Shown in pieces: positions 18,460 to 47,379 of a stretch of 64,000 nt of DNA. Below the pieces are notes generated by a model. It worked only from the letters and a program-made list of their open reading frames with translations, ran no database searches and had not been told where the DNA came from. Where the stretch lies: assembly GCA_045542335.1 (NCBI GenBank), contig JAZQKV010000017.1, forward strand, positions 12,169 through 76,168, in the 5' to 3' direction. This DNA is from Eubacteriales bacterium (GTDB lineage: Bacteria; Bacillota; Clostridia; Oscillospirales; CAG-382). The number at the start of each line of letters is the position of its first letter. Within the stretch, counting starts at the first letter, position 1. A program made the position numbers and the translations under genes.

Positions 18460-21400
18460 ATGAAAAAGTCTTTATCTCTTATTCTCAGCATTATCATGAT
18501 TCTCGCTTCGTTCAGCCTTGTGGTTAACGCTGCAGAGCCTGCGAAGTATCAACCCGAAGTCGGAGACGGATATATCCGCTTTGACGCAAGTCAGGTTATC
18601 GGCGGAACGGTTAACCATGTTCCGTCTGCAAATGTTGAAAGAAACGTGACCTTTGAGGGCAAAAACGCCATCAAGTTTACTCCCACTCCCAATGCCGAAG
18701 GTGCGGCAAAGGCAAGCGGTCTTAATATTGACTGCTATTCCCTTGCAAACTATGAGGCAAAGGTTGAAGTGCCAAAGTATAAGTATGTCGGCGTTACATA
18801 TTACTACGCAACGGATGACCCAACATATGCCGGCAAACCATGGTTTAACATTCTCCCCGGCAACACCAAGGCTACGCCAAGCCTTGCGGTTGATGCAAAC
18901 GAGAAAATCGTCACAAATCAGTGGGCAGAGGCATACTTCTCTTTCAGCTCCACAATGAAGGTTAACCAGACTGAAAAGCCCTGGATAAATCAGGTGCATT
19001 TCCGTCCTTTTCCCGGTGTCGGCGTTAGTCAGTTGAAGCCTACCGATGTGCTTTACATAGCTTATTACACCTTCTATGAAAACAATCCCGACCCCAACTC
19101 CAAGGCTACAATTGAGTTCCTTAAGGGCAACCCCGATGCACAGGGCGAAATGGAGCCTCTTGTTGTAAAGACAGGCGAAAAGTATAAGATTCCCTCTGCG
19201 GACTTTATAACTTTCCCTGCACATAAGGCGACCTTCCTTGGCTGGAAGAACAACACCGACGGCAAGATTTATCAGCCCGGCGAGGAGTTTACGGCAGGTG
19301 ACGGAACTATCACCTATACTGCAGAATGGAACATTGAATCCAACGAAGAGTTTATTGCTCTCAACTTCTGCGATTATCAGAACGGTATTGTAAACCGTCA
19401 GCCTACAGGTACGGTTGAAGAGGTTGTTGAGGACGGCAAGAGCTGCGTCAAGGTTGTTCCCAATCCCGAGTCCGAAGCAGGAAAAAGATTTACAATTGAC
19501 GGTTATCAGTATCTTTCGGCGAATATCGACCTCAATGTTTTCCATTGGATTGGAATTGAGTATAAGTACGTTTCCGAAAACCCCGTTGATGCAAGAATGT
19601 ATACCGCTATCATGAGAAACGGAAACCTTTTCCCTGCAGGAAAGAGTGCTCAGGCAGAATCCCTCAACAAGCTTGTTACAAATCAGTGGACAACCGCATG
19701 GTTTGATTACACAATGCTTCCCGAGGTTCTTGACCCTGCAACCGCAGATGACCACAGAATGCGTCAGATGCACATTCGTCCTTTCGGTAACGGCGAACTG
19801 TTCAACTTCAGCAAGGACGACACAATGTATATCAGCCGTGTTATGTTCTTCCGTGAAAAGCCTGACCTCACAACCCACAAGGCATATATGACAGGCTATA
19901 ACGATGCAACCTTTAAGCCTAACAAGACAATGACCCGAGCCGAGGCTTGCACAGTTGTTGCAAGACTTCTCGACACAGAAGAAAATATCGCAAAGAACAC
20001 CACAACTGCGTTTACAGACGTTGCGGCTGACAAGTGGTACACCAAGTATATTTCCTTCTGCGAGGCAAAGGGACTTCTCAAGGCGTACAGCGGAACATTC
20101 CTCTCCGAGCAGAATATTACAAGAGCCGAGTTTGCAGAGCTTGTTTATAACATGGGTCTTGCAAAGGAAGATGCTTCCAATAAAAAGACCTTTAAAGACG
20201 TAACAGAGGCTCATCCAAAGTATGCGGCAATCATGGCGGCGGCTTCCGCAGGACTTATCGGCGGATACGAGGACGGAACATTCCTTCCTGACAGAACAAT
20301 CACTCGTGCACAGGTTGTTACCATTATCAACAGAGCAAGAGGCGTGAGCAGAAAGCCTGAGCAGATTCCCGGCGATATCTACACTCTCTTTGTTGACGTT
20401 GACGGTACACACTGGGCATTTGCCGATATTGCAGAGGCAACTCTTGAGCACGTTGAAATGAACGGCGAATGGACATATGCGGTAGACGACCCCATTAACT
20501 CAATTGTTGAAAAGGTTGGCGAGCAAAAGCTCTTTGATTTTGCAAAGGGTAACGCAAAGGTTGCAGAGTATGATGCACTTGAAGAAAAGAGAATAGAGGA
20601 AATCAGAAACACTCCCAATATGCCTCTTTCCGAAATCAAGGGCAAGGTTTACTATGTATCCTCTTGCGCAGGTGACGACAAGAACGATGGTCTTTCCGAG
20701 GCAACACCTTTTGCTTCTATAAGACGCGCAATATCTTTTGCACGTGCAGGAGATGCTATCCTTCTCAAGAGAGGCGATATGTGGAGAGAAACAATAGCTC
20801 TCGGCAATGACCTCACTCTTTCTGCATACGGCGAAGGTGCAAAGCCTGTTATCAACGCTTCTCCCGAAAACGGCGCAGACCCTGCAAAGTGGACTCTCGT
20901 ATATAAGAACGATCAGACCGGCTCAAAGATCTGGAAGTATGCTAACGAAAAGTTCCTCGACGTCGGAAATATCGTGTTCAATGGCGGCGAAGGCTATGGC
21001 TATAAGGAAGTTCCCACCTGCGTTGGAAATAAGTATGTAGTGAGAGGCACAACAACCCCCTTTGATTACACTGTTGAGCTCAACAGAAACTTCGAGTTCT
21101 TCCACAGAGCAAACTCCGTGGCATCTACAAGAGTGATCGATCCCGGCAGTGCTATCGGTCCTCTCTATCTCAGATGCGACAACGGCAACCCGGGCGACAT
21201 ATTTGATTCCATTGAATTCAGCGTTCATGGCAATGCAATTTCAGCAAAGAGTGGAAATGTCATCGACAACATCTGCATTAAGTATGCAGGCTCTCATGGT
21301 ATTGGTATGGGCACGGTAAAGGATGTGCTTGTTCAGAACTGTGAGCTTGGCTGGATAGGTGGTTCTGTTCAGACATATGACTACCATGGTGCAGGCGGTC

Positions 21401-23409
21401 CTGCGACACGTTTTGGTAACGGCGTTGAAGTTTATGGCGGATGCGACGGCTATGTTGTTGACAACTGCTACATCTATCAGAACTATGACGCAGGCGTAAC
21501 TCATCAGTTTGCGGCAAGTGGCGCAGGAAACATTGACATGAGCAATGTTACCTATTCCAACAACGTTATCACCGATACAGTTTATTCCGTTGAATACTTC
21601 CAGACAGAAGTTCCCGAACATAAGAGAACAGGTAAGAACATTCTCATCGAGGGCAACCTCTTCAGACGTGCAGGCTACGGCTTCGGTTCAACCCGTCCCG
21701 ACGGTCACAATCAGGGGCACATCCGTTCCGGAGGAACCTCAAACCCCTTTGAAAACTTTGTTATAAGAAACAACGTGTTTGACCGTTCCGTTCAGTATCT
21801 CGTTCAGGCGCAGACCTCTCATGATGCTTATAAGCCCAAGATGCAGGGTAACATCTACATTCAGGGCAAGGACAACCACGCATTCACATTCGGTGTTCCC
21901 TCTATTAAGATTTATGCCGATGCAGGCACACCCGGCAGAGTCAAGGGCTTCCTTGGCGATGCAACAGGCGTGTTCTACTATGTGGAAAACATCCCTTACT
22001 ACGAATTCAAGTTTGATTACGCAAAGACAAGCGACAAGGAATATCCCGTTGTTTCCGAAAATCCCCTTGATTACACAAGCGGTTCTTCAACAACCCCAGC
22101 AACCCCCGCAGAACCCGAAGTTAAGGAAGAAATCTTTGCACCTTACTTTGTAAGAAATGCTGAAGGCACAGAAAAGAAGGACGCAAAGACAAAGCTTTAT
22201 GCTGACCTTCGTGCTTCCATGAATCCCGAAATCAAGACGGATTCCGCAACAGGTGCAAAGTATCTCCATATCACAATCAACAATACAACAAATGCCATCG
22301 TACTTGACTGCCACGGCCTTAATCCTCTTATCCCCATAAAGGATGGGCAGGTAGTGTTCAAGGCACTTGTCAGAACAAATCACTCCGCAAAGCCCACTAT
22401 GACCTACTACCACATCAAGGATGCTGAGGGAACAGAGTTTACCGGTAAGAGTGTCGGCAAGTCCGGCGAAGCCCATAAGGCAGACGGTAAATGGGAAGAG
22501 GTTTACATGGTTGCAAGCGGTCTTGATGCAGGATATGCAACCGCAGGACAGATTCATTTCTTCCCTTGGGGAAGCGGCGTAAAAGGACAGTCCTTCTACA
22601 ACGAGGACGGCACACCTAAGCAGGCAGACCTCTACTACGATGTTGCCGCATGGGCAATGTTCCCCAACCTCTCCTCCGCAAAGGCATATGACCTTTCCGC
22701 AAACACAGGTGCAACAGGCTCTCTTGTAGGCGCAACAGGCACAACAACACCTTCTGACCCTGCAACACCCTCTACACCTGCAACTCCTTCCACACCCTCT
22801 GCACCTGCTGTCAGCGGTGAGATTTCTGCGCCCTACTTTGTAAGAACAGCAATCGGCACAGAAAAGAAGGACATAAAGACACAGCTTTATGCCGACATAA
22901 GAGCTTCCATGAACAATGCCGTAATGACAGACCCCGAAACAGGCTATAAGTTTGTACGTACAACCCTTAATCCCACATCCAATTCTATTCTCTATGACTG
23001 TTTCGGACTTTCTCCCATTCCGCTTACAAGTGGTCAGGTTGTGTTCAAGGTGCTTATCAGAACAAATCATTCCGCAACTCCTTTCCTCAACTTCTATGGC
23101 CTTGCTGATTCCGAAGGAAACAAAGTGAGTGGCAAGAGTGTAAGCGGAGGTGCGGCAGAAGCTCTTGTTGCAGATGATAAGTGGCACGAAGTTGTTATCA
23201 CGATAAAGAACAATCATACCGTAGTTGCTTCCTCTACCCAGATTCACTTTATGCCCTGGGGCGGCGCAGTAAAAGGAAACAGCTTCTTTGATGAGGACGG
23301 AAATTGTCTTACAAATCCCGAACCTTATTTCGATGTTGCCGCATGGGCGGTATTCCCCAACGAAGCTTCTGCAAAGGCATACAGCTTTGAAAAGGATATT
23401 ATCGGTTAA
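18460..23409 (+). CDS. S-layer-anchored multidomain protein (beta-helix paralogue 1)
   Basis: The domain order is as follows.
- Signal peptide MKKSLSLILSIIMILASFSLVVNA.
- Module A with QVHFRPFPG.
- TFLGWKNNTDGKIYQPGEEFTAGDGTITYTAEW (InlB-B/Flg_new-type repeat).
- Module B with QMHIRPFGNG.
- Three SLH-like repeats (about 19882-20345).
- Beta-helix core with YYVSSCAGDDKNDG, GSHGIGMG, WIGGSVQ, RFGNGVEVYGGC and YDAGVTHQ.
- Two C-terminal modules separated by a P/T/S linker. Confidence 0.85.
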   Translation: MKKSLSLILSIIMILASFSLVVNAAEPAKYQPEVGDGYIRFDASQVIGGTVNHVPSANVERNVTFEGKNAIKFTPTPNAEGAAKASGLNIDCYSLANYEAKVEVPKYKYVGVTYYYATDDPTYAGKPWFNILPGNTKATPSLAVDANEKIVTNQWAEAYFSFSSTMKVNQTEKPWINQVHFRPFPGVGVSQLKPTDVLYIAYYTFYENNPDPNSKATIEFLKGNPDAQGEMEPLVVKTGEKYKIPSADFITFPAHKATFLGWKNNTDGKIYQPGEEFTAGDGTITYTAEWNIESNEEFIALNFCDYQNGIVNRQPTGTVEEVVEDGKSCVKVVPNPESEAGKRFTIDGYQYLSANIDLNVFHWIGIEYKYVSENPVDARMYTAIMRNGNLFPAGKSAQAESLNKLVTNQWTTAWFDYTMLPEVLDPATADDHRMRQMHIRPFGNGELFNFSKDDTMYISRVMFFREKPDLTTHKAYMTGYNDATFKPNKTMTRAEACTVVARLLDTEENIAKNTTTAFTDVAADKWYTKYISFCEAKGLLKAYSGTFLSEQNITRAEFAELVYNMGLAKEDASNKKTFKDVTEAHPKYAAIMAAASAGLIGGYEDGTFLPDRTITRAQVVTIINRARGVSRKPEQIPGDIYTLFVDVDGTHWAFADIAEATLEHVEMNGEWTYAVDDPINSIVEKVGEQKLFDFAKGNAKVAEYDALEEKRIEEIRNTPNMPLSEIKGKVYYVSSCAGDDKNDGLSEATPFASIRRAISFARAGDAILLKRGDMWRETIALGNDLTLSAYGEGAKPVINASPENGADPAKWTLVYKNDQTGSKIWKYANEKFLDVGNIVFNGGEGYGYKEVPTCVGNKYVVRGTTTPFDYTVELNRNFEFFHRANSVASTRVIDPGSAIGPLYLRCDNGNPGDIFDSIEFSVHGNAISAKSGNVIDNICIKYAGSHGIGMGTVKDVLVQNCELGWIGGSVQTYDYHGAGGPATRFGNGVEVYGGCDGYVVDNCYIYQNYDAGVTHQFAASGAGNIDMSNVTYSNNVITDTVYSVEYFQTEVPEHKRTGKNILIEGNLFRRAGYGFGSTRPDGHNQGHIRSGGTSNPFENFVIRNNVFDRSVQYLVQAQTSHDAYKPKMQGNIYIQGKDNHAFTFGVPSIKIYADAGTPGRVKGFLGDATGVFYYVENIPYYEFKFDYAKTSDKEYPVVSENPLDYTSGSSTTPATPAEPEVKEEIFAPYFVRNAEGTEKKDAKTKLYADLRASMNPEIKTDSATGAKYLHITINNTTNAIVLDCHGLNPLIPIKDGQVVFKALVRTNHSAKPTMTYYHIKDAEGTEFTGKSVGKSGEAHKADGKWEEVYMVASGLDAGYATAGQIHFFPWGSGVKGQSFYNEDGTPKQADLYYDVAAWAMFPNLSSAKAYDLSANTGATGSLVGATGTTTPSDPATPSTPATPSTPSAPAVSGEISAPYFVRTAIGTEKKDIKTQLYADIRASMNNAVMTDPETGYKFVRTTLNPTSNSILYDCFGLSPIPLTSGQVVFKVLIRTNHSATPFLNFYGLADSEGNKVSGKSVSGGAAEALVADDKWHEVVITIKNNHTVVASSTQIHFMPWGGAVKGNSFFDEDGNCLTNPEPYFDVAAWAVFPNEASAKAYSFEKDIIG

Positions 23410-23798: not shown

Positions 23799-26700
23799 AT
23801 GAAAAGATTCACAAGTGCGGTACTTTGTGTACTCATGATTCTCTCATGCTTTACTTTTGTTGCCTCTGCAGCTGAGGGAAAGTATGCACCCGAAGTTGGC
23901 GACGGATATATCCGTTTCGACTACAACCAGATTGCCTGCGGCTTTGTAAACCACAAAAAGTATGGTGTAATGGAAAAGAACATGGAGATTGACGGCGTAA
24001 AGGCTGTTAAGTTTACTCCTGCTCCCACAGAAGAGGATGCTGCGGCTTCAACAACATATTCCCTCGACTGCTGGAATCTTGCAAACTATGAGGCTAAGGT
24101 TGAAGTTCCAAAGTATAAGTATGTTGGCGTAAAGTATTACTACGCAACAGATAACCCCACATTTAATGATAAGATGGAATTCAACATTCTCCCCGGTAAC
24201 ACAAAGGCAACCGACAGCCTCACCGTTAAGTCCGCAAAGCCGGTTGTTACAAATCAGTGGGCAGAGGCGATTTTCGATTTCAGCTCTGTAATGAAGCTTA
24301 AGGAAACGGATAAACCCTGGATAAACCAGGCACATTTCCGTCCTTTCCCGGGCATGGCTCCCTCGTTGCTCAAGGCAGAGGACGTGCTTTATATTGCGGA
24401 GTATTCTTTCTATGAAAGAAATCCCGACCCCAACGCACGCGTGACAATCACGTTCCAAAAGGGTGATCCCGGTGCAATCGGTGAGGTTGCTCCTATTGAA
24501 GTTAAGCCCGGAGAAAAGTACACTCTCCCTGAGCCTGCATATACCTTTGAGGGTTACGCAGCCGAGTTCAAGGGTTGGCAGCGTTCCTCCGACAGCGAAA
24601 TCTTCCCTGCAGGAACAGAGTTTGTTGCAGATGGTGGACTTTCCTTCAAGGCACTCTGGGAAATCGAAACAGACAAGAGTTTCATCTCCATAGATTTCAA
24701 GGACTATGAAGACGGTATTGTTAACCACAAAAAAACCGCTACCATCGAAATCGTTGAATTTGAAGGCAAGAACGTTGTTAAGGTAACTCCCGACCCAACA
24801 TCCACAGAAGCAAAGCAGATTTCTCTTGACGGTTGGAGCTATGAGGGCGCAGGAATTGACCTTGGTGTGTTCAAATATTTTGCAATTGAATATAAGTACG
24901 TTTCCAAGAAACCTGTTGATGAAAACATGGTTATTGCGATCATGACCAACGGCGGAATCCTCACAAAGTCCCCCTCCGCAAACTCAACAACAAAGATTGT
25001 TGAGGGTCAGTGGACTCTCGCTTTGTTTGAGTTCCCCGGTATTGATGAGCTTCTCGCTCCCAACAAGACTGTTCACAACATGAAGCAGATGCACATCCGT
25101 CCCTGGGGTACAACTGAGCTTTCCGCAATTCACCCCGAAGACAGAATGTATATCGGAAGCATCATGTTCTTCCGTGACAAGCCTGAACTTGTTGAGCATA
25201 ACGCATATATGACAGGCTATAATGATGCCTCTTTCAAGCCTAACAAGACAATGACAAGAGCCGAGGCTTGCACAGTTGTTGCAAGACTTCTCGACACAGA
25301 AGAAAACATCGCAAAGAACACCACCACCTTATTTACAGACGTTGCGGCAGATAAGTGGTACACCAAGTATATTTCTTTCTGCGAAGCAAAGGGACTTCTT
25401 AAGTCTTACAGCGGAACTTTCCTCCCCGAGCAGAATATTACAAGAGCCGAATTTGCAGAGCTTGTTTATAACATGGGCCTTGCAAAGGAAGATGCGGCAA
25501 ATAAGAAGACCTTTACAGACGTAACCGAGGCTCATCCCAAGTACGCCGCAATTATGGCAGCGGCAAGCGCAGGTCTCATTGGTGGCTACGAGGACGGAAC
25601 ATTCCTTCCCGACAGAACAATCACCCGTGCACAGGTTGTGACAATCATCAACCGTGCAAAGGGCATTTCCAAGAAGGCAGAAAATATCACCGATTCCGTT
25701 GACGTTATATTCACCGACGTTGATGCAACGCATTGGGCGTTTGCTGACATTGCAGAGGCAACAGTTCCTCATGCCGAGCTTGACGGAAGCTGGGTATATT
25801 GCATTGAAGATCCCCTCGTAAAGGTGCTTGAGCACATGGACGAGGACGAAATCATAAACATCGAAGCAGGTAAGGCAAAGGTTGCAGAGCTCGATGCACT
25901 TGAAGCAAAGAGAATTGAGGAAATCAGAAATACTCCCTCAATGGACCTCTCTCACATCACAGGCAAGAAGATTTACGTTTCCAACAACGGTAAGGATACA
26001 AACGACGGTCTCACTCCCGAAACAGCGGTTGCTTCCATTTCCAAGGCTATGGGTATGGCAGGTGCAGGCGGTGCGGTGCTTCTCGAAAGAGGCGGATTCT
26101 GGAGAACTAAGTTCACAGTTCCCGCAGGCGTAACAGTTACCGCATACGGCGAAGGCGCAAAGCCTACTATCTACGGCTCTCCCGAGGATGGTGCAGACCC
26201 TGCAAAGTGGGCTCTCGTTTATAAGGATGACTCAACTGGTGCGAAGATCTGGAAGTATGCAAACGAGGGCATGACAGACGTTGGTACTCTTGTATTCAAC
26301 CACGGCGAAGGCTTTGCCATGAAGGAAATCCCCACAAGCAAGGGCAAGAAATTCGTTGTCAGAGGCACAGACGATGTTGAGTTCGATTATAAGAAAGAGC
26401 TTGACAAGAACTTTGAGTTCTTCCACAGGGCAAACTCCGTTGTCAGCGGAAATATCATCAACGCAAGTACGGCTGTAGGTCCTCTCTATTTCAGATGCGA
26501 CAACGGCAACCCCGGTGAAGTGTTCGACTCCATTGAGTTCAACACCAAGGGCAATATCATTAGTGCAAATAACAATGTGACAGTTGACAACCTCTGCATC
26601 ATGTATGGCGGAAGCCACGGTATCGGTATGGGTACTGTAAAGAACGTAAAGTTCACAAACCTTGAGGTGGGTTGGATTGGCGGCTCAATTCAGAGCTACA

Positions 26701-28001
26701 ACGCAAACAGCACAACCGACGGCAGGGCAACACGTTTTGGCAACGGTATTGAAGTTTACGGCGGATGCGACGGCTACACAATCGACAACTGCTATGTTTA
26801 CCAGTGCTATGACGCAGGCGTTACACATCAGCTTTCCGGCAGCGCAACCGGTGACTACAGAGAAGACAACGTAACCTACTCCAACAACGTAATCACCGAG
26901 TGCGTATACTCAATTGAATACTTCCTCGGTCTCAACGGTGCATATGTAAGAGAAGGAAAGAACATCCTCTTTGAGGGCAACCTCCTCAGACGTGCAGGCT
27001 TTGGCTTTGGTTCATTCCGTCCCGACGGCAACAACCAGAGACACATCAGAGGCGGCAGCGGAAACCAGTTTGAAAACTACGTTATCAGAAACAACATTTT
27101 CGACCGTTCCGTATATGAGCTTGTTCAGACAACAACCGTTCACCCTGCATATGTTCCCAAATATGAGGGTAACACATATATCCAGGGTCTCGGCAACAGA
27201 GTTTACTATTCCGGCGTTCCCGCAATGGGTGCAAACGCAGACCTTCTTATCGAAAACAAGATAAGACGCAGACTTGGCGACGAAACCGCAAAGTTCTATT
27301 TTGTTGAAAACGTTCCCTATTGGACGTATGACTATGTAAACCCCAAGACAAGCGACAAGGAATATCCTGTTGTCGCAGACGTTGACGGCGGCGCAGCTCC
27401 TGTGGCCCCTGCAGTTCCTGCAGAACCCGAAGAAGTTAAAGATCCTTACTTCGTGAGAACTGCCGCAGGCAAGGAAGCAAAGGACAGCAAGACACAGCTT
27501 TATGCCGCTGCAAGAGACTCTATGAATGTAGAGTTCAAGACGGATGCTGACAGCGGTATCAAGTACGCCCATGTAACCACCACCGGCAAAGAAAGTACAT
27601 ACAACATGGACTGCTATGGTCTTAATCCTGTTATTCCCTTTGAAAATGGAAAAGCAGTAATAAAAGTTCTCATGAGAACAAATGCAACACACTCAACAAA
27701 TCCCGCTATTGTTTTCTACCATCTCATGCAGGAGGACGAAACAGAGGCAACGGGTAAATCTGTTGAAGCAAAGCTCAGTGCATACCCTGCATCAGATGGA
27801 ACATGGCAGGAAATGTATTTTGTTGCGGAAAATGTAAGCTATGTAAGCTCAAGCCAGATTCACCTGCTCTTTGCAGGCAGAACTGCAAAGGGTACGGACT
27901 TTAAGGAAGGTCAGTACTATGACGTTGCGGCATGGGCGGCATTTCCCAACCTCACCTCTGCAAAGGCATATGACCTTAAAAAGGACTGTGTTGCAAAGTA
28001 A
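23799..28001 (+). CDS. S-layer-anchored multidomain protein with the same architecture as paralogue 1 but one C-terminal module (beta-helix paralogue 2)
   Basis: Signal peptide MKRFTSAVLCVLMILSCFTFVASA. The protein is colinear with 18460-23409 throughout, and its SLH triplet at about 25203-25666 is nearly identical to that of paralogue 1. The core has GSHGIGMG, WIGGSIQ, RFGNGIEVYGGC and YDAGVTHQ. Confidence 0.85.
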   Translation: MKRFTSAVLCVLMILSCFTFVASAAEGKYAPEVGDGYIRFDYNQIACGFVNHKKYGVMEKNMEIDGVKAVKFTPAPTEEDAAASTTYSLDCWNLANYEAKVEVPKYKYVGVKYYYATDNPTFNDKMEFNILPGNTKATDSLTVKSAKPVVTNQWAEAIFDFSSVMKLKETDKPWINQAHFRPFPGMAPSLLKAEDVLYIAEYSFYERNPDPNARVTITFQKGDPGAIGEVAPIEVKPGEKYTLPEPAYTFEGYAAEFKGWQRSSDSEIFPAGTEFVADGGLSFKALWEIETDKSFISIDFKDYEDGIVNHKKTATIEIVEFEGKNVVKVTPDPTSTEAKQISLDGWSYEGAGIDLGVFKYFAIEYKYVSKKPVDENMVIAIMTNGGILTKSPSANSTTKIVEGQWTLALFEFPGIDELLAPNKTVHNMKQMHIRPWGTTELSAIHPEDRMYIGSIMFFRDKPELVEHNAYMTGYNDASFKPNKTMTRAEACTVVARLLDTEENIAKNTTTLFTDVAADKWYTKYISFCEAKGLLKSYSGTFLPEQNITRAEFAELVYNMGLAKEDAANKKTFTDVTEAHPKYAAIMAAASAGLIGGYEDGTFLPDRTITRAQVVTIINRAKGISKKAENITDSVDVIFTDVDATHWAFADIAEATVPHAELDGSWVYCIEDPLVKVLEHMDEDEIINIEAGKAKVAELDALEAKRIEEIRNTPSMDLSHITGKKIYVSNNGKDTNDGLTPETAVASISKAMGMAGAGGAVLLERGGFWRTKFTVPAGVTVTAYGEGAKPTIYGSPEDGADPAKWALVYKDDSTGAKIWKYANEGMTDVGTLVFNHGEGFAMKEIPTSKGKKFVVRGTDDVEFDYKKELDKNFEFFHRANSVVSGNIINASTAVGPLYFRCDNGNPGEVFDSIEFNTKGNIISANNNVTVDNLCIMYGGSHGIGMGTVKNVKFTNLEVGWIGGSIQSYNANSTTDGRATRFGNGIEVYGGCDGYTIDNCYVYQCYDAGVTHQLSGSATGDYREDNVTYSNNVITECVYSIEYFLGLNGAYVREGKNILFEGNLLRRAGFGFGSFRPDGNNQRHIRGGSGNQFENYVIRNNIFDRSVYELVQTTTVHPAYVPKYEGNTYIQGLGNRVYYSGVPAMGANADLLIENKIRRRLGDETAKFYFVENVPYWTYDYVNPKTSDKEYPVVADVDGGAAPVAPAVPAEPEEVKDPYFVRTAAGKEAKDSKTQLYAAARDSMNVEFKTDADSGIKYAHVTTTGKESTYNMDCYGLNPVIPFENGKAVIKVLMRTNATHSTNPAIVFYHLMQEDETEATGKSVEAKLSAYPASDGTWQEMYFVAENVSYVSSSQIHLLFAGRTAKGTDFKEGQYYDVAAWAAFPNLTSAKAYDLKKDCVAK

Positions 28002-28205: not shown

Positions 28206-28234
28206 TTGACAAAGGCACAATGATATTGTAAAAT
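28206..28234 (+). promoter_or_regulatory. Sigma-A promoter of the stand-alone beta-helix gene
   Basis: TTGACA-N17-TAAAAT lies about 30-50 nt upstream of the candidate starts at 28262 and 28286. Confidence 0.55.
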
Positions 28235-31511: not shown

Positions 31512-31547
31512 AAGGTGCTGTGTCGGTTTGGATACAGCACCTTTTTT
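31512..31547 (+). terminator. Intrinsic terminator after the 29909-31462 gene
   Basis: A 10-bp stem (aaggtgctgt / acagcacctt) runs into tttttt. Confidence 0.7.
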
Positions 31548-39341: not shown

Positions 39342-40115
39342 TTGGGGTTGGGAAAAAACAATTGTGTTCAAAAGACAATGCTCATTTTAAGGATTCTTGC
39401 CGATGCAAAGGGCAAGAGCGTGACGCTTTCGGATATTTCGGAATTGACGGGAATAAATAAGAGTACCGCAAGCCATATTATCAAAGATCTTTGCTGCATG
39501 GGATATGTGACAAGGGTGAGCCACAGAGAGGGGTACACAACGGGTCCGGAGCTTTTCTTTCTCACACGCTATGGCAGATTTGGCGGCGAATATGTGAGCA
39601 TTTGCCATCCGCTTCTGGAGTGGCTCTGCAAAAAAACAGGTGGCACAGCCATTCTTGCGGTTGTTGAGGGTGGAAAAAAGTATATTATTGACTATGTTGA
39701 GGGAGATTTGCATTATAAGGATTCGGGAGCTTTTATTATGGGCGACGACCTTTACAGAACTGTTACGGGCAGAGTGATTCTGGCAAATATTCCCACTCAC
39801 GAAGCGTTGGAGATTTTCAACGAAAACGGCGTGCCGCCAAAAGGTCATTGGAATGAGGTTTGTGACAGGGAGTCATTTTTGCATGAGCTTTCGCTGATAC
39901 GCAAAGACAGCGTTTTTGGTATGATCAATGAAAATGAGGGACGTGTGCTTTGTTCGTTTGCATCTGCGCTGTTTTCGGGCGCAAAATGCTTGGGAGCATT
40001 GGGACTTGTTGTTGCAAGGGAAGAAAAAACGCTTGATGGCGGTGAGCTTGCGGGTATAAACGAGCTTGTTTCACGTGCAAGAAAAGAATTCCAGCGAAGA
40101 CTTGAGTTTTCATGA
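39342..40115 (+). CDS. IclR-family transcriptional regulator
   Basis: Winged HTH (LRILADAKGKSVTLSDISELTGINKSTASHIIKDLCCMGYV) plus a C-terminal effector-binding domain of IclR size. The start is uncertain: TTG at 39342 or 39348 behind AAAGGAG, or ATG at 39378. Confidence 0.8.
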   Translation: MGLGKNNCVQKTMLILRILADAKGKSVTLSDISELTGINKSTASHIIKDLCCMGYVTRVSHREGYTTGPELFFLTRYGRFGGEYVSICHPLLEWLCKKTGGTAILAVVEGGKKYIIDYVEGDLHYKDSGAFIMGDDLYRTVTGRVILANIPTHEALEIFNENGVPPKGHWNEVCDRESFLHELSLIRKDSVFGMINENEGRVLCSFASALFSGAKCLGALGLVVAREEKTLDGGELAGINELVSRARKEFQRRLEFS

Positions 40116-40231: not shown

Positions 40232-40260
40232 TTGACGTAAATAACGGATTATGGTAAAAT
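40232..40260 (+). promoter_or_regulatory. Sigma-A promoter of the four-gene beta-helix operon
   Basis: TTGACG-N17-TAAAAT lies about 100 nt upstream of the ATG at 40360. It is the only good promoter I see between 40116 and 47379. Confidence 0.55.
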
Positions 40261-40359: not shown

Positions 40360-41880
40360 ATGTTGAAGCTTGCTGACAAGGAATTTCTTTGCGAAATTGA
40401 CAAAAAGGCGGAGGAGATGAAGAAAAAGATTCTCACCTCTCCCGACACAATTACATACACGGGCAAGGCACACTATGTTGCTGAAGACGGAAATGACGAA
40501 AACGACGGTCTTTCACCCGAAAAAGCGTGGAAAACAAACAAGAGGGTTTCCGATGCCTCAAAGAACGGAGAGCTTTGCGAGGGCGATGCTGTTCTCTTTA
40601 AGAGAGGGGATATTTTCAGAGGTCAGGTTGTTGTTGCTCCGGGCGTGACCTATGCTGCATATGGTAAGGGCGACAAGCCGAAAATTTATGGCTATGAGGT
40701 TGACCTTGCTGACCCCTGCAAGTGGGAGGTGTACAACGCCGAAAAGCACATCTGGAAATACACCGATAAAATCCTTGATGCAGGAACTCTCGTGTTCAAC
40801 CATGGCGAAAAGCACTCGATAAAGCTTATTCCCACATACACCCGTGAGGGCAAGTTTGTGCTTCGTGACAACACGGATGTACCCTTTGTTATGGAGGAGC
40901 AGATGGTAAGAGACCTTGACATTTTCTCTGACACACGCATGAGATTTACTGAGCCTCCGGCAGATGACGAAAAGCTTTTCCCTGTACCTTTGGTTACGCA
41001 GGAAGATTTTGGCGACCTTTATCTCAGATGTGACGGTGGAAATCCCGGTGAAATCTTTGATTCAATCGAAATTCTTCCCAAGAGAAACACCTTTGCCATA
41101 GGCGGAAGAAGCAACGTTAAAATTGACAACCTCTGCATAAAGTATTGCGGAGCACATGGTATTGGCGGCGGCGGAAGTGTAGAGGGGCTCCGTGTGACAA
41201 ACTGCGAAATAGGTTGGATTGGCGGCTCAATTCAGCACTACAACGGCTCAAACGCGCGTTGCGGAATTGTTACCCGTTACGGAAACGGTATCGAGATTTA
41301 CGGTGCCTGCAAGGATTACACCGTGGACAACTGTTGGGTATACGAGTGCTACGATGCAGGTCTTACACATCAGGCAAGTGCCGGTGCGATGAAGAGAGAC
41401 GTTTGCATGATTGACGTTTACTACACAAACAATCTCCTTGAGGACAGCGTTTACAACATCGAGTATTTCCTTTCCGAAACAGAGAATACAAACAGCATAA
41501 TGGATAATTTTGAGATAAGCGGAAACATCATGCGTCGTGCAGGCAACGGATGGGGCAGACAGCGTTACAATCCCGATTCTCCTGCAAATATCAAGAGCTG
41601 GGGGGCATCCAATCCTGCGAAGAATTACAGAATTTTCAATAATATCATTGACCGTGGAACACAGCGTTTGCTTCACATCATCGCACAGGATAAAGAGAGC
41701 CTACCCGATATGCACGACAATATTTATATTCAGACCGAGGGCGGAAAGCTCGGTTTTATGGGTGTAAGAGACACCGAAACCGCAAAGACTCATTTTGCCT
41801 ACGATGACAAAGCACCCGAAGTGCTTGCAGAGGTATTTGGCGAAAAGAACAGTGAGTTTTACTATTATACCGAAGAATAA
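40360..41880 (+). CDS. Leaderless beta-helix protein (paralogue 4)
   Basis: No signal peptide. Motifs: EIDKKAEEMKKKIL, HYVAEDGNDENDGLSPEKAWKT, GAHGIGGG, WIGGSIQ, RYGNGIEIYGAC, YDAGLTHQ and GWGRQR...NIKSW. Confidence 0.8.
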   Translation: MLKLADKEFLCEIDKKAEEMKKKILTSPDTITYTGKAHYVAEDGNDENDGLSPEKAWKTNKRVSDASKNGELCEGDAVLFKRGDIFRGQVVVAPGVTYAAYGKGDKPKIYGYEVDLADPCKWEVYNAEKHIWKYTDKILDAGTLVFNHGEKHSIKLIPTYTREGKFVLRDNTDVPFVMEEQMVRDLDIFSDTRMRFTEPPADDEKLFPVPLVTQEDFGDLYLRCDGGNPGEIFDSIEILPKRNTFAIGGRSNVKIDNLCIKYCGAHGIGGGGSVEGLRVTNCEIGWIGGSIQHYNGSNARCGIVTRYGNGIEIYGACKDYTVDNCWVYECYDAGLTHQASAGAMKRDVCMIDVYYTNNLLEDSVYNIEYFLSETENTNSIMDNFEISGNIMRRAGNGWGRQRYNPDSPANIKSWGASNPAKNYRIFNNIIDRGTQRLLHIIAQDKESLPDMHDNIYIQTEGGKLGFMGVRDTETAKTHFAYDDKAPEVLAEVFGEKNSEFYYYTEE

Positions 41881-41917: not shown

Positions 41918-43366
41918 ATGCTTGAATACGCAACAAAAGAGCTTTATGAGGAGCTTGACAAAAAAGCTGACGACATGAGGAAGGCGATTCTCGCCACAAA
42001 AACAGATGTAACTTACACCGGCAAGGCGCACTATGTTGCAAACGACGGAAACGATGAGAACGACGGCCTTACTCCCGAAACCGCATGGAAAACCAACGCA
42101 AGGGTTTCGGAGGCAGAGCTTTGTGAGGGCGATGCGGTCTTCTTCAAGAGAGGAGACCTTTTCAGAGGTCAGCTCAAGACCAAGCCCGGTGTTACCTATT
42201 CCGCATACGGCGAGGGCGACAAGCCGAAGATTTATTCATACCATGAAAATGCCGCAATCCCCGAAAAGTGGGAGCTTTACAACAAGGAGCTTAATATCTG
42301 GCGTTACAAGGACCCTATGCTTGATTCAGGAACAATAGTTTTCAACGAGGGCGAACACGTCGGTCTCAAGGAAATCCCCTCATTTATTGATGGTGAGTTC
42401 AGGGTAAGAAAAGAGCCGGAAAAGAAATATGTATTTGAAGAGCACCTCACAAAGGAGTTTATGTTCTTCCAGGACAACTGCGGAAAGCTTAATCCCGCCG
42501 GTAAGCCTTGTCCCGGAGATCCTGCAAACAACAACGGTTTTCTCTATCTCAAGTTTTCCGGCGGCAACCCCGGCGAGGTGTTTGATTCAATTGAATTTTT
42601 GCCGAAGTTCAACCTTGTGCAGATAGGTGGCGACAACATTCACATAGACAACCTCTGCATAAGATATGCCGGAGCACACGGTATTGGTGCAGGTACGGTT
42701 GACGGACTTTGCGTTACAAACTGCGAAATCGGCTGGATTGGCGGTACGATTCAGTTCTACAGTTCCGAGACAGGACACGTTGTTCGTTACGGAAACGGTG
42801 TTGAAATTTACGGCGGATGCCACAATTACACAATTTCAAACTGCTGGATTTACGAGTGCTATGACGCAGGTGTGACCCATCAGGTTCAGGCGAGGGAAAG
42901 ACATCTTGATATGTTTGACGTTACCTACAGCGACAACCTCATTGAAAAATGCGTTTACAACATTGAATATTTCCTCTCACGCCTCACCCCCGAAAACACC
43001 TGTACCATGAAGAATTTCATTATAAAGAACAACTTCCTTCGTTTCAGCGGATTCGGTTGGGGCAGACAGCGTCCCGGTCACGCAAACGCACACATCAAGG
43101 GATGGGATGCGGATAATCCTGCCATAAACTATGTTATTGAAAACAACATTCTTGACAGAGCCACCGACATGATGGTCCACATCGGATACAACCGTGGAGA
43201 AGACCCCGTTCTTAAGAACAACACCTATATCCAATATCCCAATGCACAGTTCGGACGTATCGGCAAGGCTCCCACAGACCTTGTTACATATGATATTGAA
43301 AGAATCGACAAAATTGCCGCAGAAAAATTCTTTGATGAGGGCGGAAAGTTCTATATCGCATATTAA
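41918..43366 (+). CDS. Leaderless beta-helix protein (paralogue 5)
   Basis: No signal peptide. Motifs: ELDKKADDMRKAIL, HYVANDGNDENDGLTPETAWKT, GAHGIGAG, WIGGTIQ, RYGNGVEIYGGC, YDAGVTHQ and GWGRQRP...HIKGW. The gap to the upstream gene is 37 nt. Confidence 0.8.
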   Translation: MLEYATKELYEELDKKADDMRKAILATKTDVTYTGKAHYVANDGNDENDGLTPETAWKTNARVSEAELCEGDAVFFKRGDLFRGQLKTKPGVTYSAYGEGDKPKIYSYHENAAIPEKWELYNKELNIWRYKDPMLDSGTIVFNEGEHVGLKEIPSFIDGEFRVRKEPEKKYVFEEHLTKEFMFFQDNCGKLNPAGKPCPGDPANNNGFLYLKFSGGNPGEVFDSIEFLPKFNLVQIGGDNIHIDNLCIRYAGAHGIGAGTVDGLCVTNCEIGWIGGTIQFYSSETGHVVRYGNGVEIYGGCHNYTISNCWIYECYDAGVTHQVQARERHLDMFDVTYSDNLIEKCVYNIEYFLSRLTPENTCTMKNFIIKNNFLRFSGFGWGRQRPGHANAHIKGWDADNPAINYVIENNILDRATDMMVHIGYNRGEDPVLKNNTYIQYPNAQFGRIGKAPTDLVTYDIERIDKIAAEKFFDEGGKFYIAY

Positions 43367-43419: not shown

Positions 43420-44832
43420 ATGGCACTCAATTATGCAACACCCGAATTTCTTGCAGAGCTTGACAAAAAAGCCGACGAAATGCGTGAAAAGATACTGGGC
43501 ACCAAAACTGAGGTTACATACACAGGCAAGGCGTACTACGTTTCAAATGACGGAAACGATGCAAATGACGGCTCGGAAAATGCTCCCTGGGCGACACTTG
43601 CAAAGGCTTCCGAGGCAGAGCTTTGCGAGGGTGACGCTGTATTTTTCAAGAGAGGCGACCTTTTCAGAGGTCAGCTTATCACAAAGCAGGGCGTAACATA
43701 TTCCGCATATGGAGAAGGCTCAAAGCCCAAACTCTATGGCTCTCCATTTGACATGGCAGACGAGAGCAAATGGATTCTCACCGACACTCCCGACGTTTAT
43801 ATGTATGATGCAGAGCTTTGCAACGACATTGGCGCACTTGTATTTAACCACGGCGAAAGCTGGGGCATTAAAGTTATGAAGCTTCGCAATGACGAAAACG
43901 ACGACTGCCTCAACCTTGAAACAGGCGAACCCTTTAACAGCTATCGTGACCTTTGCCACGACCTTGATTTCTGGCACGCATACCGTGAAAACGAGGAAAA
44001 GGCTCTTTACCTCTGTTCAAAGGAGGGCAATCCCGGTCAGCGTTTCAAATCCATTGAATTTTCGCCAAAGGGCAACCTTATAAGAGGTACACACGGTGTC
44101 ACAATCGACAATCTCTGCATCAAATATTGCGGAAGCCACGGTGTTGGTGCAGGCACAACCCATGACCTTAAAATCCAGAACTGTGAGTTCGGCTGGATAG
44201 GCGGCTCTATTCAGGGCGAGGCGATTTTCGGAAGAAAGCACCCCACTCGTTTCGGCAACGCCGTTGAGATTTACGGTGGCTGTGAGAACTATTCCGTTGT
44301 CAACAGCTGGTTTTATCAGGTTTACGATGCGGCAATTACCCATCAGGTAAATGCACGGGGTCAGCATATCGACATGAAAAACGTGCTTTATGCCGACAAC
44401 CTCATCGAAACAAGCTCCTATTCCATCGAGTATTTCCTCTCTGCCGTTGAGGATACGGGCAGTATGATGGATAACTACATCGTTGAAAACAACTTCTGTC
44501 GCAATGCAGGCTACGGCTGGGGTGATCAGCGTCCCGACAAGGACACTCCTGCTCACATCAAGGGCTGGAATGCCGACAACCCTGCAAGAGGATATATCAT
44601 AAGAAACAACATCTTCGACAGAGGTCGCTATAATATTCTTCAATCCGGATGCATGGATAAGGAGTCCGAGGCAAAGCTTGAAAACAACATCTATATTCAG
44701 TATGAGGGCAACCGCCTTGGAAACTTCGGAAAGAATCCTGCACCCATGATGATGTTTGACGAAAGCGCAGAGGATGTCATAAAGAATACTTACGGCGACA
44801 AGGGTGCAAAGGTTTATTGGGTTAAGAAATAA
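43420..44832 (+). CDS. Leaderless beta-helix protein (paralogue 6)
   Basis: No signal peptide. Motifs: ELDKKADEMREKIL, YYVSNDGNDANDG, GSHGVGAG, WIGGSIQ, RFGNAVEIYGGC, YDAAITHQ and GWGDQRP...HIKGW. The gap to the upstream gene is 53 nt. Confidence 0.8.
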   Translation: MALNYATPEFLAELDKKADEMREKILGTKTEVTYTGKAYYVSNDGNDANDGSENAPWATLAKASEAELCEGDAVFFKRGDLFRGQLITKQGVTYSAYGEGSKPKLYGSPFDMADESKWILTDTPDVYMYDAELCNDIGALVFNHGESWGIKVMKLRNDENDDCLNLETGEPFNSYRDLCHDLDFWHAYRENEEKALYLCSKEGNPGQRFKSIEFSPKGNLIRGTHGVTIDNLCIKYCGSHGVGAGTTHDLKIQNCEFGWIGGSIQGEAIFGRKHPTRFGNAVEIYGGCENYSVVNSWFYQVYDAAITHQVNARGQHIDMKNVLYADNLIETSSYSIEYFLSAVEDTGSMMDNYIVENNFCRNAGYGWGDQRPDKDTPAHIKGWNADNPARGYIIRNNIFDRGRYNILQSGCMDKESEAKLENNIYIQYEGNRLGNFGKNPAPMMMFDESAEDVIKNTYGDKGAKVYWVKK

Positions 44833-44877
44833 TAATTCCGAATCGGGACAAAAGCTTTTTATGAAAGGATTTGAAAA

Positions 44878-47379
44878 ATGACACAAATAAAGAGAATAAT
44901 GACACTTTTGCTTGCAGGCGTGCTTGCGATATCGACAATGCTCACCTCCTGCAATACCGACGTAAACCCCGATGAAACCGAAAAAACAGACGGTGAAAGC
45001 AAGCAGGAAGAAATTGTTGAAGAACCTTATGAGGAGGTTTTTACTTACGAAACCGAAAACGGGACTATCGAGTATTCCTCCGAGGTTGGGAAAATTGCAG
45101 AATATCCGGCTCTCAAGGCACTTGAGATTGCCGAAGACACGGTGACATATGTTGACGATGAGTATTTTGCCGCCCTTGATGCAAAGGCAAATGCAATGCG
45201 TGATAAGATACTTAACACCGAAACAACAATTGTCCCCGAGGGCGATGCAAAGGAATATTATGTTTCCATGACGGGCGATGACTCCGCAGACGGCGAAACT
45301 CCAGAAACTGCATGGAAAACACTTGGAAATGTAAGCGGCTCGGAGAACCTTAATGCAGGAGATGTCATCTATTTTGAAAGAGGCGGCGTGTGGAGAGGTC
45401 AGCTCCAGACCATGCCCGGCGTGACATACACGGCTTATGGCGATGTTGCAAACGGAAAGCCTGCCCTCTACGGCTCACCCGAGGACGGCGCAGATGCAAA
45501 AAAGTGGGCGCTTGTTTTTGAGGACAAGCTCACGGGCAAAAAGATATGGCAGTATCAGAACAAGCTTATGGATTCCGGAACACTTGTGTTTAACCACGGC
45601 GAAGCAGGCTGTGCATATAAGGAAGTTCCAAACTATATTGACGGCAAATATATGCTCAGAAGGAACAATTCCGTTGAGTTTGATTACACCGTGGAGCTTG
45701 ATAACGACCTTGAAATGTTCCAAGCAGCAGACAGCGAAATCAAAAACGGAGTTCCCAATGTCGGAAGTGTCAACAACGTGGGTTATATCTATCTCAGATG
45801 CGACAGCGGAAATCCCGGTGAAGTTTTTGATTCGATTGAATTTCTTCCGAGAAGAAACGGTTTTCAGGTTGGCGGCAACGAGGGAGTTACCATTGACAAC
45901 TTCTGCATAAAGTATGTTGGTTCTCACGGCGTGGGTGCAGGAACCTGCAAGGACCTGACAATTACAAACTGTGAGCTTGCTTGGATAGGTGGCGGTATTC
46001 AGACATATCAGTTCAGAGGTGACACAACAGGTCGTGTAACACGTTACGGAAACGCAATTGAAATTTATGGCGGTTGCGACGGATATGTTGTTGACAACTG
46101 TTATATATGGCAGGCATATGATGCAGGTGTCACGCATCAGGTTGGCGTTTCAGACGGTCCGAAAGTTTACTACATGAACGATATTTACTACACAAACAAC
46201 CTCATTGAGTATTGCACATATAACGTTGAATATTTCCTTTCGGGTGTTCCCCAAGACAATCCCAGCATGATGAACAACGTAAACATTTCGGACAACATCA
46301 TGCGTTATGCCGGAAACGGTTGGGGTGAACAGCGTCCTGACACAGGTTCTGCGGCGCACATCAAAAGCTGGTCATCATCAAACCCTGCAACGGATTTTGT
46401 TATCGAGAGAAACATTTTTGACAGAGGTTATCACAGACTTTTCCATATTGCTTCTACTCTTGAAGAGCATCTTCCCATAATGCGTGACAATGTTTATATT
46501 CAGTATAACGGTGCAAAGCTTGGAATGTTTGGCCCCGGCTCACCAAAGGATCAGGTTTATGATGAAAATGTTGCAGCACTTATAAATGAGGGGTATATAA
46601 AGGACGTAACCGCAGATATACGCTATGCTCGTCCCGAACCCGGAATGGCTGTTTTTGAGCCTACAAGTGAGTATGACGATTATCTCGACAGTCTCCCGTC
46701 GTATTCCTATGTTGACTCGAACGGAACCCTTATTCCTTTCAGAGTGGTTTACCCTGCAAGCTACACTAAGGGGGATAAGCTTCCAATGGTGGTTGTTCTC
46801 CACAATGAGTATCAGAACGGAAGCGAAAACCGTGAGCAGGCAAGGCTGAATGCGGATCTTGCAAGAAGTGCCTACAAACTTTGGGCAGGTTCTTCTGCCA
46901 ACTGTATATTCCTTTTCCCTCAATGCCGTGACGGATATAAATGGGTGAACACAAAGCTTGCCGCAACATATTCCATGGATGAGGTCGGCGAAAGCAGACA
47001 CCTGAAGGCTGTGGCAGAGCTTATTCCTGTTGCTGCGGAATATTTCGGCGCTGACACAACAAACATAAGCGTTTCCGGCACATCCGAGGGAGCAACGGCT
47101 GCATGGGACATTGCAATGCGTCATCCGGAGCTTTTCAGCCGTGCAATGATGGTGTGCGGTGCGGTTGACCCCACTCACGCAGAGGCTCTTGGCAACATGG
47201 AGGTTTATGTTTTCCATGGAACAAACGACGTTAAGGTGAGAATTGCAGGCGTTGACGCTGCAATTGAGCAGATGAAGTCGGCGGGCGCAAATATCACCTA
47301 TAATCAAGTTGAGGGCGCAATGCACGATTGCTGGAAGCAGGTTCAGACAGGCGATGCAGTTAAAAAACTTGTTGGATAA
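44878..47379 (+). CDS. Lipoprotein fusion of a beta-helix module (paralogue 7) with a C-terminal alpha/beta-hydrolase esterase domain
   Basis: Lipobox (...AISTMLTSC). The beta-helix core has GSHGVGAG, WIGGGIQ, RYGNAIEIYGGC, YDAGVTHQ and GWGEQRP...HIKSW. From about 46640 there is an esterase domain with nucleophile elbow GTSEG, GTNDV (Asp) and AMHDCW (His). Confidence 0.8.
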   Translation: MTQIKRIMTLLLAGVLAISTMLTSCNTDVNPDETEKTDGESKQEEIVEEPYEEVFTYETENGTIEYSSEVGKIAEYPALKALEIAEDTVTYVDDEYFAALDAKANAMRDKILNTETTIVPEGDAKEYYVSMTGDDSADGETPETAWKTLGNVSGSENLNAGDVIYFERGGVWRGQLQTMPGVTYTAYGDVANGKPALYGSPEDGADAKKWALVFEDKLTGKKIWQYQNKLMDSGTLVFNHGEAGCAYKEVPNYIDGKYMLRRNNSVEFDYTVELDNDLEMFQAADSEIKNGVPNVGSVNNVGYIYLRCDSGNPGEVFDSIEFLPRRNGFQVGGNEGVTIDNFCIKYVGSHGVGAGTCKDLTITNCELAWIGGGIQTYQFRGDTTGRVTRYGNAIEIYGGCDGYVVDNCYIWQAYDAGVTHQVGVSDGPKVYYMNDIYYTNNLIEYCTYNVEYFLSGVPQDNPSMMNNVNISDNIMRYAGNGWGEQRPDTGSAAHIKSWSSSNPATDFVIERNIFDRGYHRLFHIASTLEEHLPIMRDNVYIQYNGAKLGMFGPGSPKDQVYDENVAALINEGYIKDVTADIRYARPEPGMAVFEPTSEYDDYLDSLPSYSYVDSNGTLIPFRVVYPASYTKGDKLPMVVVLHNEYQNGSENREQARLNADLARSAYKLWAGSSANCIFLFPQCRDGYKWVNTKLAATYSMDEVGESRHLKAVAELIPVAAEYFGADTTNISVSGTSEGATAAWDIAMRHPELFSRAMMVCGAVDPTHAEALGNMEVYVFHGTNDVKVRIAGVDAAIEQMKSAGANITYNQVEGAMHDCWKQVQTGDAVKKLVG

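Follow-up and report, generated by a model that had tools for sequence, protein, structure and literature searches.

A recurrent β-helix module in a member of the Oscillospirales: a candidate glycoside-hydrolase-like family for dietary glycan catabolism

Introduction

Enzymes that cleave glycans with a right-handed β-helix are well known and include both surface and cytoplasmic members, and a further family of them is of a kind already known and carries no new biological principle. The described systems closest to the one reported here are the glycoside hydrolase (GH) families GH120, GH136 and GH141 and the polysaccharide lyase (PL) family PL9. The subject of this report is a module of about 480 residues that occurs seven times in a 64,000-nucleotide stretch of DNA, referred to throughout as the window, from an Eubacteriales bacterium (Clostridia; Oscillospirales; CAG-382; contig JAZQKV010000017.1 of assembly GCA_045542335.1, positions 12,169 to 76,168 of the forward strand). 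The reading that we favor, and to which we give slightly better than even chances, is that the seven proteins belong to a new, uncharacterized β-helix glycoside-hydrolase-like family serving dietary glycan catabolism.

Among the described systems, GH120 is represented by XylC of Thermoanaerobacterium saccharolyticum (3vst), which is composed of a β-helix (residues 1-75 and 201-638) interrupted by a β-sandwich (residues 76-200) (PMC3507262). The sandwich contributes W113, which stacks against the sugar in subsite -1, and the helix carries the nucleophile D382 and the acid/base residue E405, 4.9 Å apart (PMC3507262). GH136 comprises lacto-N-biosidases such as LnbX of Bifidobacterium longum and ErLnb136 of Eubacterium ramulus (5gqc, 6kqs, 7v6m, and 7v6i), which have in common with the module a right-handed β-helix and an occurrence in gut Clostridia. 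BT1002 of Bacteroides thetaiotaomicron (5mqp), of GH141, is likewise a β-helix glycoside hydrolase from a gut bacterium. Enzymes of GH120, and those of GH136 from Clostridia, are believed to act inside the cell by trimming oligosaccharides that have been taken up; XylC, like the leaderless copies of the module described below, has no leader.

Seven Copies of One Module

The module is carried by seven open reading frames (ORFs), named c1 to c7 in order of position:

18460-23409, + strand: c1, a 1649-aa surface protein with SLH domains (PF00395, E 6e-31)
23799-28001, + strand: c2, a 1400-aa SLH surface protein, 58% identical to c1 (SLH E 6e-33)
28262-29806, + strand: c3, a 514-aa leaderless copy of the c1/c2 subfamily, with the module at 28298-29761
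40360-41880, + strand: c4, a 506-aa leaderless copy
41918-43366, + strand: c5, a 482-aa leaderless copy, the one that was modeled
43420-44832, + strand: c6, a 470-aa leaderless copy
44878-47379, + strand: c7, an 833-aa lipoprotein with the lipobox LTSC at residues 22-25 and a linker of about 60 aa

The same seven coding sequences had been singled out in a preliminary description of this DNA, made from the sequence alone, which put the module at about 450 residues; the coordinates are confirmed and the length is closer to 480. In an alignment of the seven copies, the modules are 38-60% identical in pairs over about 480-500 aligned residues and share more than 100 invariant columns, and their similarity is thus far above chance. 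Searching all six frames of the window by hmmsearch with the family profile turned up c1 to c7 and no eighth copy. The E-values of that search (1e-175 to 1e-213) are circular, because the profile itself contains c1 to c7, and pairwise identity is the independent measure. One cap-like match at 16653-16793 (- strand) was considered as an eighth copy and rejected as spurious, the site being occupied by the gene for MetK:

15867-17168, - strand: MetK (SAM synthetase; PDB 7r3b, E 2e-163)

Two + strand ORFs without a Pfam match, 15801-16586 and 16593-17192, are spurious shadows of this gene. Long ORFs of up to 659 aa also lie antisense within c1 and c7 (18472-20451, 22087-23247, and 46540-47496, all on the - strand); they are presumably artefacts of composition, because the sense frames have strong homology.

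The sequence motifs quoted in the preliminary description are present, with small deviations in c2 to c5: c2 has NLE in place of NCE, c3 has CIVHTG, c4 and c5 have NNIIDR and NNILDR, respectively, and c4 has QRY and NIK in place of QRP and HIK. By motif the copies fall into two subfamilies that track their position, with G-F-G-S-x-R-P in c1 to c3 and G-W-G-x-Q-R in c4 to c7. This division, also proposed earlier, extends beyond the window and runs through the whole family, where 83 of 110 members are of the W type and 23 of the F type.

Fold and Relation to Described Families

Modeling of c5 with AlphaFold2 (AF2) from an alignment of 57 sequences gave a right-handed β-helix (pLDDT 95.1, pTM 0.94), which bears out the fold that had been proposed from sequence. 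Residues 7-25 form an N-terminal helix. The cap spans about residues 35-106 and the strand-rich insert about 107-215, and residues 216-480, about 260 in all, make up a periodic all-β core. Neither Pfam nor NCBIfam holds a model that matches the module above its cut-off, save for DUF1565 (PF07602; 21.8 against a cut-off of 20.3), which covers 37 cap residues in c3 only; a full-module match at cut-off is absent from the Pfam comparison that the preliminary description had suggested. The Beta_helix model (PF13229) reaches 19.0-22.9 bits in c3, c5, and c7 against a cut-off of 25.9 and has no match in c1, c2, c4, or c6, and the Pel9A-like model (PF22842) scores 16.1 against a cut-off of 25.2.

When the model was compared with the PDB by Foldseek, the first match was GH120 XylC (3vst; E 4.5e-11, TM 0.44), followed at ranks two to five by GH136 lacto-N-biosidases (E 3e-10 to 5e-7, TM 0.2-0.37). 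The highest TM score, 0.46, belongs to GH141 BT1002 (E 3e-7), and it is followed by lyases of capsule and pectin, GH110, and GH28. The best of these structural neighbors are without exception β-helix enzymes that cleave glycans. All of the PDB matches listed lie at about 8-14% identity, and a viral fold library returned only generic tail-fiber or depolymerase helices at no more than 16% identity. The earlier statement that the module matches no known family holds insofar as no signature of a catalytic family and no curated model covers it, but its cap is homologous to that of GH136 and its domain order mirrors that of XylC.

The relation to GH136 is a relation of caps. Sequence profiles match all five GH136 structures (E 4e-17 to 1e-11), essentially through the cap only, and hhalign against GH136, represented by an alignment of 29 genome genes recovered via PDB-derived cap fragments, gives a probability of 99.2% (E 3e-19) for a region confined to c5 residues 23-105. 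Beyond the cap, no sub-alignment of the 482 residues of c5 reached a probability of 1% by hhalign. The common cap reads YYVS-x-G-x-D-x-N-D-G ... P-[WF]-K-[TS]-L ... L-x-P-G-D-x-V-L-x-x-R-G ... AYG-x-G-x-KP. Unlike GH136, the module family has a short N-terminal helix and a β-rich insert of about 100 residues after the cap, and neither the Asp-x6-Asp catalytic motif nor a GH112/ABC locus was found in it. The catalytic motif W-D568-ADSG-D575 was confirmed in the E. ramulus GH136 gene (ErLnb136); the string Y-D316-A-G-x-T-H-Q of the module resembles it only superficially, without an Asp at +7, and D568 and D575 have no confident aligned counterpart. A GH136_I/LnbY-like partner was sought in the window by tblastn and phmmer with ErLnb136 residues 1-232, which gave nothing better than E 4.3, in a single-sequence search that a very remote partner could escape. 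Membership in GH136 was rejected on the restriction of homology to residues 23-105, and, by the tests run at the level of sequence, the module family is one that shares an ancestral cap with GH136 and is not a member of it.

The order of cap, inserted β-sandwich, and helix core is the same in the module as in XylC, and the active-site Trp that XylC draws from its insert, together with its carboxylates on neighboring coils, may have parallels in the invariant W118, D316, and E350 of the module. XylC differs in its length of 638 aa and in being tetrameric. BT1002 is only about 10% identical to the module, has no match to it at the level of sequence, and works in another context, a polysaccharide utilization locus (PUL) for rhamnogalacturonan II. 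The PL9 lyases (Pel9A, 1ru4; 5olq and 5olr) have the same fold and a similar cap motif (profile E 1e-3 to 1e-2), but the match spans only about 45 residues, and PL9 enzymes are secreted and Ca2+-dependent, whereas most close relatives of the module are leaderless.

Conserved Residues and Proposed Mechanism

Conservation was measured over 137 representative domains that are no more than 50% identical to each other. The most conserved polar residues are W118, D136, and K151 in the insert and E226, E270, R290, N293, D316, Q322, E350, and R385 in the core; W118 is found in 100% of the representatives, D316 in 99%, E350 in 98%, E226 and Q322 in 97%, R290 in 92%, and E270 and R385 in 91%. H254 and E296 are conserved at 82-88%. 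All of these residues are kept in all seven copies, so that none of c1 to c7 looks like a pseudo-enzyme. The strand pattern of the c5 model places E270, E296, D316, and E350 at equivalent positions of successive coils.

By analogy with XylC, the module would be a glycoside hydrolase whose active site is bounded on one side by the insert and on the other by a single face of the helix. Trp118, an invariant residue of the insert, is a candidate platform for the sugar, and Asp316 (in YDAG) and Glu350 (in IEYF), on neighboring coils, are the candidate catalytic pair of what would be a retaining glycosidase. Glu226, Glu270, Glu296, Arg290, Gln322, and Arg385 are candidate substrate binders.

Protein Architecture and Cellular Location

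The three cellular locations ascribed to the seven proteins in the preliminary description, with two SLH-anchored proteins, one lipoprotein, and four leaderless copies, are confirmed. Both c1 and c2 have a Sec signal peptide, read from the sequence, and three SLH domains N-terminal to the module. In c1 the signal peptide is followed by two N-type domains, three SLH domains, the module, and two C-type domains that resemble carbohydrate-binding modules (CBMs). The parts of the two proteins are as follows:

18571-19866, + strand: c1, two N-type domains of about 175 aa (aa ~38-211 and ~298-469; internal BLAST E 7e-18), with a linker domain of about 80 aa between them
19870-20409, + strand: c1, SLH triplet, cell-wall anchor (PF00395, three stretches)
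20533-21987, + strand: c1, β-helix module, aa 692-1176 (hmmsearch envelope and alignment)
22105-23406, + strand: c1, two CBM-like β-sandwich C-type domains (22105-22704 and 22810-23406), 55% identical to each other
~25191-25733, + strand: c2, SLH domains
25854-27308, + strand: c2, β-helix module
27414-27998, + strand: c2, one C-type domain

The N-type domain occurs twice in c2 as well, and the C-type domain measures about 195 aa. Neither has a usable match in Pfam or NCBIfam, with only sub-threshold noise in Pfam. The AF2 model of the C-type domain is a β-sandwich (pLDDT 87.6), and its best Foldseek matches in the PDB are CBMs (X584, CBM22, CBM6, CBM4, CBM30, and CBM86; E 3e-5 to 1e-3). Both domains recur in one to three copies in many family members, and they are also found in leaderless relatives of 706 aa. 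The DNA that encodes the SLH domains is 91% identical between c1 and c2 over 300 nt (19876-20175 and 25197-25496), and other repeated segments are 73-86% identical; this likeness suggests gene conversion or a stronger constraint on the anchor.

The remaining copies are of two kinds. In c3 to c6, the module begins right at the N-terminus, with no hydrophobic leader in the sequence, while the lipoprotein c7 continues beyond the module into an α/β-hydrolase domain:

45139-46632, + strand: c7, β-helix module
~46732-47379, + strand: c7, C-terminal α/β-hydrolase esterase domain

This domain matches PF00756 (E 2e-8 to 3e-7) and the esterase EstA (PDB 3doh, E 2e-19), and has Ser, Asp, and His in canonical order, with the nucleophile elbow G734-T-S736-E-G738, D784, and H816. 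The fusion of module and esterase is conserved in the relatives L001, L002, L006, P0037, and P0048.

The proteins may accordingly be assigned different roles. The SLH-anchored c1 and c2, with their CBM-like domains, would attack the polymer at the cell surface as a first step, c7 couples the module to a carboxylesterase, whose presence implies an acylated glycan, and the leaderless c3 to c6 would act in the cytoplasm, trimming oligosaccharides after import. Specificity for linkage or sugar probably varies among the paralogues. We infer the hydrolase chemistry, the catalytic residues, the class of substrate, and the division of labor among compartments; the partition into surface, membrane, and cytoplasm is itself real and recurs family-wide, and its functional meaning is part of what we infer. 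The substrate is most likely a dietary plant cell-wall glycan.

Size and Distribution of the Family

A word-indexed search found at least 942 homologues, and every named one goes under "hypothetical" or "right-handed parallel beta-helix repeat-containing protein." An exhaustive search of 1.84 billion cluster representatives, with clusters formed at 50% identity, returned 1,794 clusters at E≤1e-30, 7,708 at E≤1e-10, and 21,315 at E≤1e-3, the last figure including cap-only and generic helix matches. No characterized equivalent of the family was found in the literature available as open-access text.

Relatives occur in at least 528 loci of GTDB species representatives. The best 78 of these loci all belong to metagenome-assembled genomes (MAGs) of uncultured Clostridia from the guts of ruminants, deer, chickens, and Hadza people, among them Oscillospiraceae, Acutalibacteraceae, Christensenellaceae, Pumilibacteraceae, and Ca. 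Ornithomonoglobus, and the buffalo MAG RGIG7291 holds at least 14 copies of the family on five contigs. As in the window, the location of the proteins varies: 85 of 120 close relatives are leaderless, and for 144 divergent representatives the counts are 104 with a hydrophobic leader and 26 leaderless. SLH domains are present in 20 of 43 multidomain representatives. Esterase fusions recur across the family with three different folds, and a GDSL/SGNH esterase, an AXE1 esterase, and a dockerin are each found in single multidomain members.

Genomic Context

In the window, the seven genes lie in two loci. Locus 1 appears to form three transcription units, namely c1, c2, and c3 with the following ORF, c8. 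The promoter-like and terminator-like sites used here and below are consensus matches and carry no evidence of function.

29909-31462, + strand: c8, a secreted protein of about 517 aa with a signal peptide read from the sequence, function unassigned
18373, promoter-like site of c1
23602, promoter-like site of c2
28206-28234, promoter-like site of c3 (11/12)
28024, terminator-like hairpin after c2
31512-31543, terminator-like hairpin after c8

No Pfam or NCBIfam model matches c8. Its reading frame opens at the stop of c3 and the terminator-like hairpin stands 3' of c8, for which reasons the two genes are probably co-transcribed. Locus 2 consists of a gene for an IclR-family regulator and then c4, c5, c6, and c7, and the last four are read as one operon because the gaps between them are 37-53 nt and no terminator lies within:

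39342-40115, + strand: IclR-family regulator directly upstream of c4 to c7 (PF09339 and PF01614)
40232-40260, promoter-like site of c4
47543-48652, - strand: 6-phosphofructokinase, directly downstream of locus 2
49233-57823: complete glycogen operon glgB-C-D-A-P, including the GH13 branching enzyme

About 10 kb separate the loci, filled by genes for RecR, YbaB, Mfd, a peptidyl-prolyl isomerase, an MreD-like protein, a radical-SAM protein, and other housekeeping genes, and loci 1 and 2 form separate transcription units. Upstream of locus 1 are genes for a radical-SAM protein, MetK (- strand), and a HAD hydrolase. It had been stated that no sugar transporter, glycoside hydrolase, or sugar kinase lies next to either locus. 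This is right in that there is no PUL-like layout, but the 6-phosphofructokinase gene and the glycogen operon with its GH13 enzyme stand directly downstream of locus 2; they are housekeeping genes and not a polysaccharide utilization layout. Elsewhere in the window are genes for a WG-repeat protein (833-2581, - strand) and a BspA-type leucine-rich-repeat protein (7497-8615, - strand); LRR_5 proteins are also found near family members at other loci, as 4 of 113 second neighbors.

For the relatives, context was surveyed by clustering 974 ORFs from the 78 related loci and by assigning Pfam families to 124 first and 113 second neighbors. No conserved neighbor of single genes emerged, the 237 flanking ORFs matching 138 and 115 Pfam families, none of them in more than five loci; the commonest neighbor is an AraC-type regulator, in 16 of the 78 loci. 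Tandem arrays like c4 to c7, in which a longer copy comes after two or three leaderless ones, recur in relatives, and carbohydrate genes adjoin them. In the closest two MAGs, L001 (1-9858) and L002 (6991-16608), a gene for a GH127 β-L-arabinofuranosidase lies upstream of an orthologous c(4)-5-6-7 array, in L002 with a divergent AraC regulator upstream of GH127 and a VanY peptidase nearby. In L007 (4492-17058), from the buffalo-cecum MAG with at least 14 copies, four members are interleaved with GH5, an amidohydrolase, and a 122-aa ORF, and a dockerin-bearing protein of 872 aa follows the array. The L004 array is accompanied by GH2 and an IclR regulator 52% identical to that of the window, and the L053 array by a sodium:solute symporter, a gene layout repeated in L075. 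Counterparts of the GH127, AraC, and Acyl_transf_3 genes of L001 and L002 are missing from the window, and the flanking genes of the window find no matches beside the orthologous arrays of relatives.

Each of c4 to c7 is 64-73% identical to its own orthologue in other MAGs, against 38-50% to its neighboring copies, which makes the duplications old; the c5 orthologues of L001 and L002 stand at 72-73% identity. The preliminary description had proposed a dedicated multi-enzyme system acting on one glycan, and this proposal finds no support, given independent loci about 10 kb apart, other contexts in relatives, old paralogues, and a scattered family. Old, scattered, and expanded paralogues fit diversified specificities at least as well as they fit sequential steps on one polymer.

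Alternative Functions

Catabolism of glycans, probably acylated and derived from plants, is favored because of the CBM-like modules, the esterase fusions, the neighbors of the arrays (GH127, GH5, GH2, a symporter, and AraC or IclR regulators), and the host habitats. Several observations weigh against this reading. The catalytic assignment leans solely on conservation and coil spacing, with a core that cannot be aligned to that of GH136, and XylC (3vst) was absent from profile searches of PDB sequences at E≤10. The fold matches are weak (TM ≤0.46, about 10-12% identity), and β-helices match one another promiscuously. Beside neither locus of the window is there a PUL-like layout, a transporter, or a classical catabolic glycoside hydrolase, and most single-copy members of the family lack a carbohydrate-related neighbor. 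In both L001 and L002, the gene directly after the array, next to the c7 orthologue, encodes a membrane acyltransferase of the Acyl_transf_3 family, which usually modifies the cell's own surface glycans. To our knowledge, no activity is known for any member of the family.

The acyltransferase bears on the possibility that the proteins turn over, remodel, and recycle glycans of the cell's own envelope (secondary cell-wall polymer, S-layer glycan, capsule, or exopolysaccharide), with the cytoplasmic copies recycling imported fragments. Together with the esterase fusion, the SLH domains of 20 of the 43 multidomain members, the housekeeping surroundings of most members, this window included, and the VanY peptidase of L002, it gives that possibility some substance. 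We nevertheless consider it quite improbable, in view of an expansion to 14 or more diverged copies within a single MAG, the CBM-like modules, a dockerin in one member and a dockerin protein beside the L007 array, and arrays whose neighbors (GH127, GH5, GH2, symporter, AraC/IclR) are typical of nutrient acquisition. SLH domains, moreover, are also the usual anchor of catabolic enzymes in Clostridia. The same fold might alternatively perform β-elimination, with the base supplied by an Arg, Lys, or His and a metal bound by the conserved carboxylates, which would make the module a new polysaccharide-lyase family for uronate glycans such as pectin, rhamnogalacturonan, or acidic polysaccharides of bacteria or the host. 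The invariant R290, R385, and K102 and the conserved H254 would suit such chemistry, capsule and pectin lyases are among the fold matches, and the IclR regulator upstream of c4 to c7 belongs to the family of enterobacterial KdgR. The weak matches to the Pel9A-like Pfam model, NCBIfam PelN, and the PL9 rhamnogalacturonan lyase 5olq that also speak for a lyase are, however, limited to the cap, which GH136 has as well; the top fold matches are hydrolases, the window has no genes of uronate metabolism, and four of the seven copies, like most close relatives, would be cytoplasmic, where Ca2+-dependent β-helix lyases are not to be expected. We regard a lyase as unlikely.

Two further explanations carry little weight. 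A very divergent GH136 enzyme, lacto-N-biosidase-like and directed at type-1 chains of the host or of milk, could account for significant profile matches to every GH136 structure, the hhalign probability of 99.2%, and fold ranks two to five, but homology that ends at about residue 105 of 482, a W-D568-ADSG-D575 motif without a confident counterpart, TM scores of 0.2-0.37, no GH112/ABC transporter context seen, and no GH136_I/LnbY-like partner in the window by single-sequence search make it very improbable. That the proteins are non-catalytic, as adhesins, structural proteins associated with the S-layer, or relics of phage tail spikes, is barely credible: β-helices are common in adhesins and phage tail fibers, and viral folds match at a level similar to that of the PDB matches, yet viral identity does not exceed 16%, the window contains no phage genes, most close relatives are small, leaderless, and cytoplasmic, and a constellation of invariant Asp, Glu, Trp, Arg, and Gln residues persists across the 137 divergent representatives.

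Significance

The module family, which by the tests run falls outside the described families, is a good candidate for a new CAZy family. A stronger claim, which we put forward tentatively and hold to be rather doubtful, is that it founds a new family at the CAZy level with a catalytic apparatus (W118 from the inserted sandwich, D316, and E350) unlike any described in glycoside hydrolases or polysaccharide lyases, and that its substrate is a linkage for which no enzyme is known. Annotation pipelines label the family "hypothetical" or "beta-helix repeat protein" because it lacks Pfam, NCBIfam, and structural annotation. All of the relatives retrieved belong to uncultured gut Clostridia, from ruminants, birds, and humans on fiber-rich diets, where the family is often among the most expanded of genes. 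The window provides a ready test set, with the soluble leaderless c3 to c6, a natural fusion to an esterase, hinting that the substrate is acylated, and a pair of surface enzymes whose CBM-like modules are new. An assigned activity would fill a gap in predictions of fiber degradation from carbohydrate-active enzymes and would probably create a new CAZy family. If the stronger claim is true, the family, which can exceed ten copies in a genome, would be a major unrecognized determinant of dietary fiber use by abundant uncultured gut Clostridia of the Oscillospirales type, and its matched surface, lipoprotein, and cytoplasmic isoforms would represent a Gram-positive alternative to PULs.

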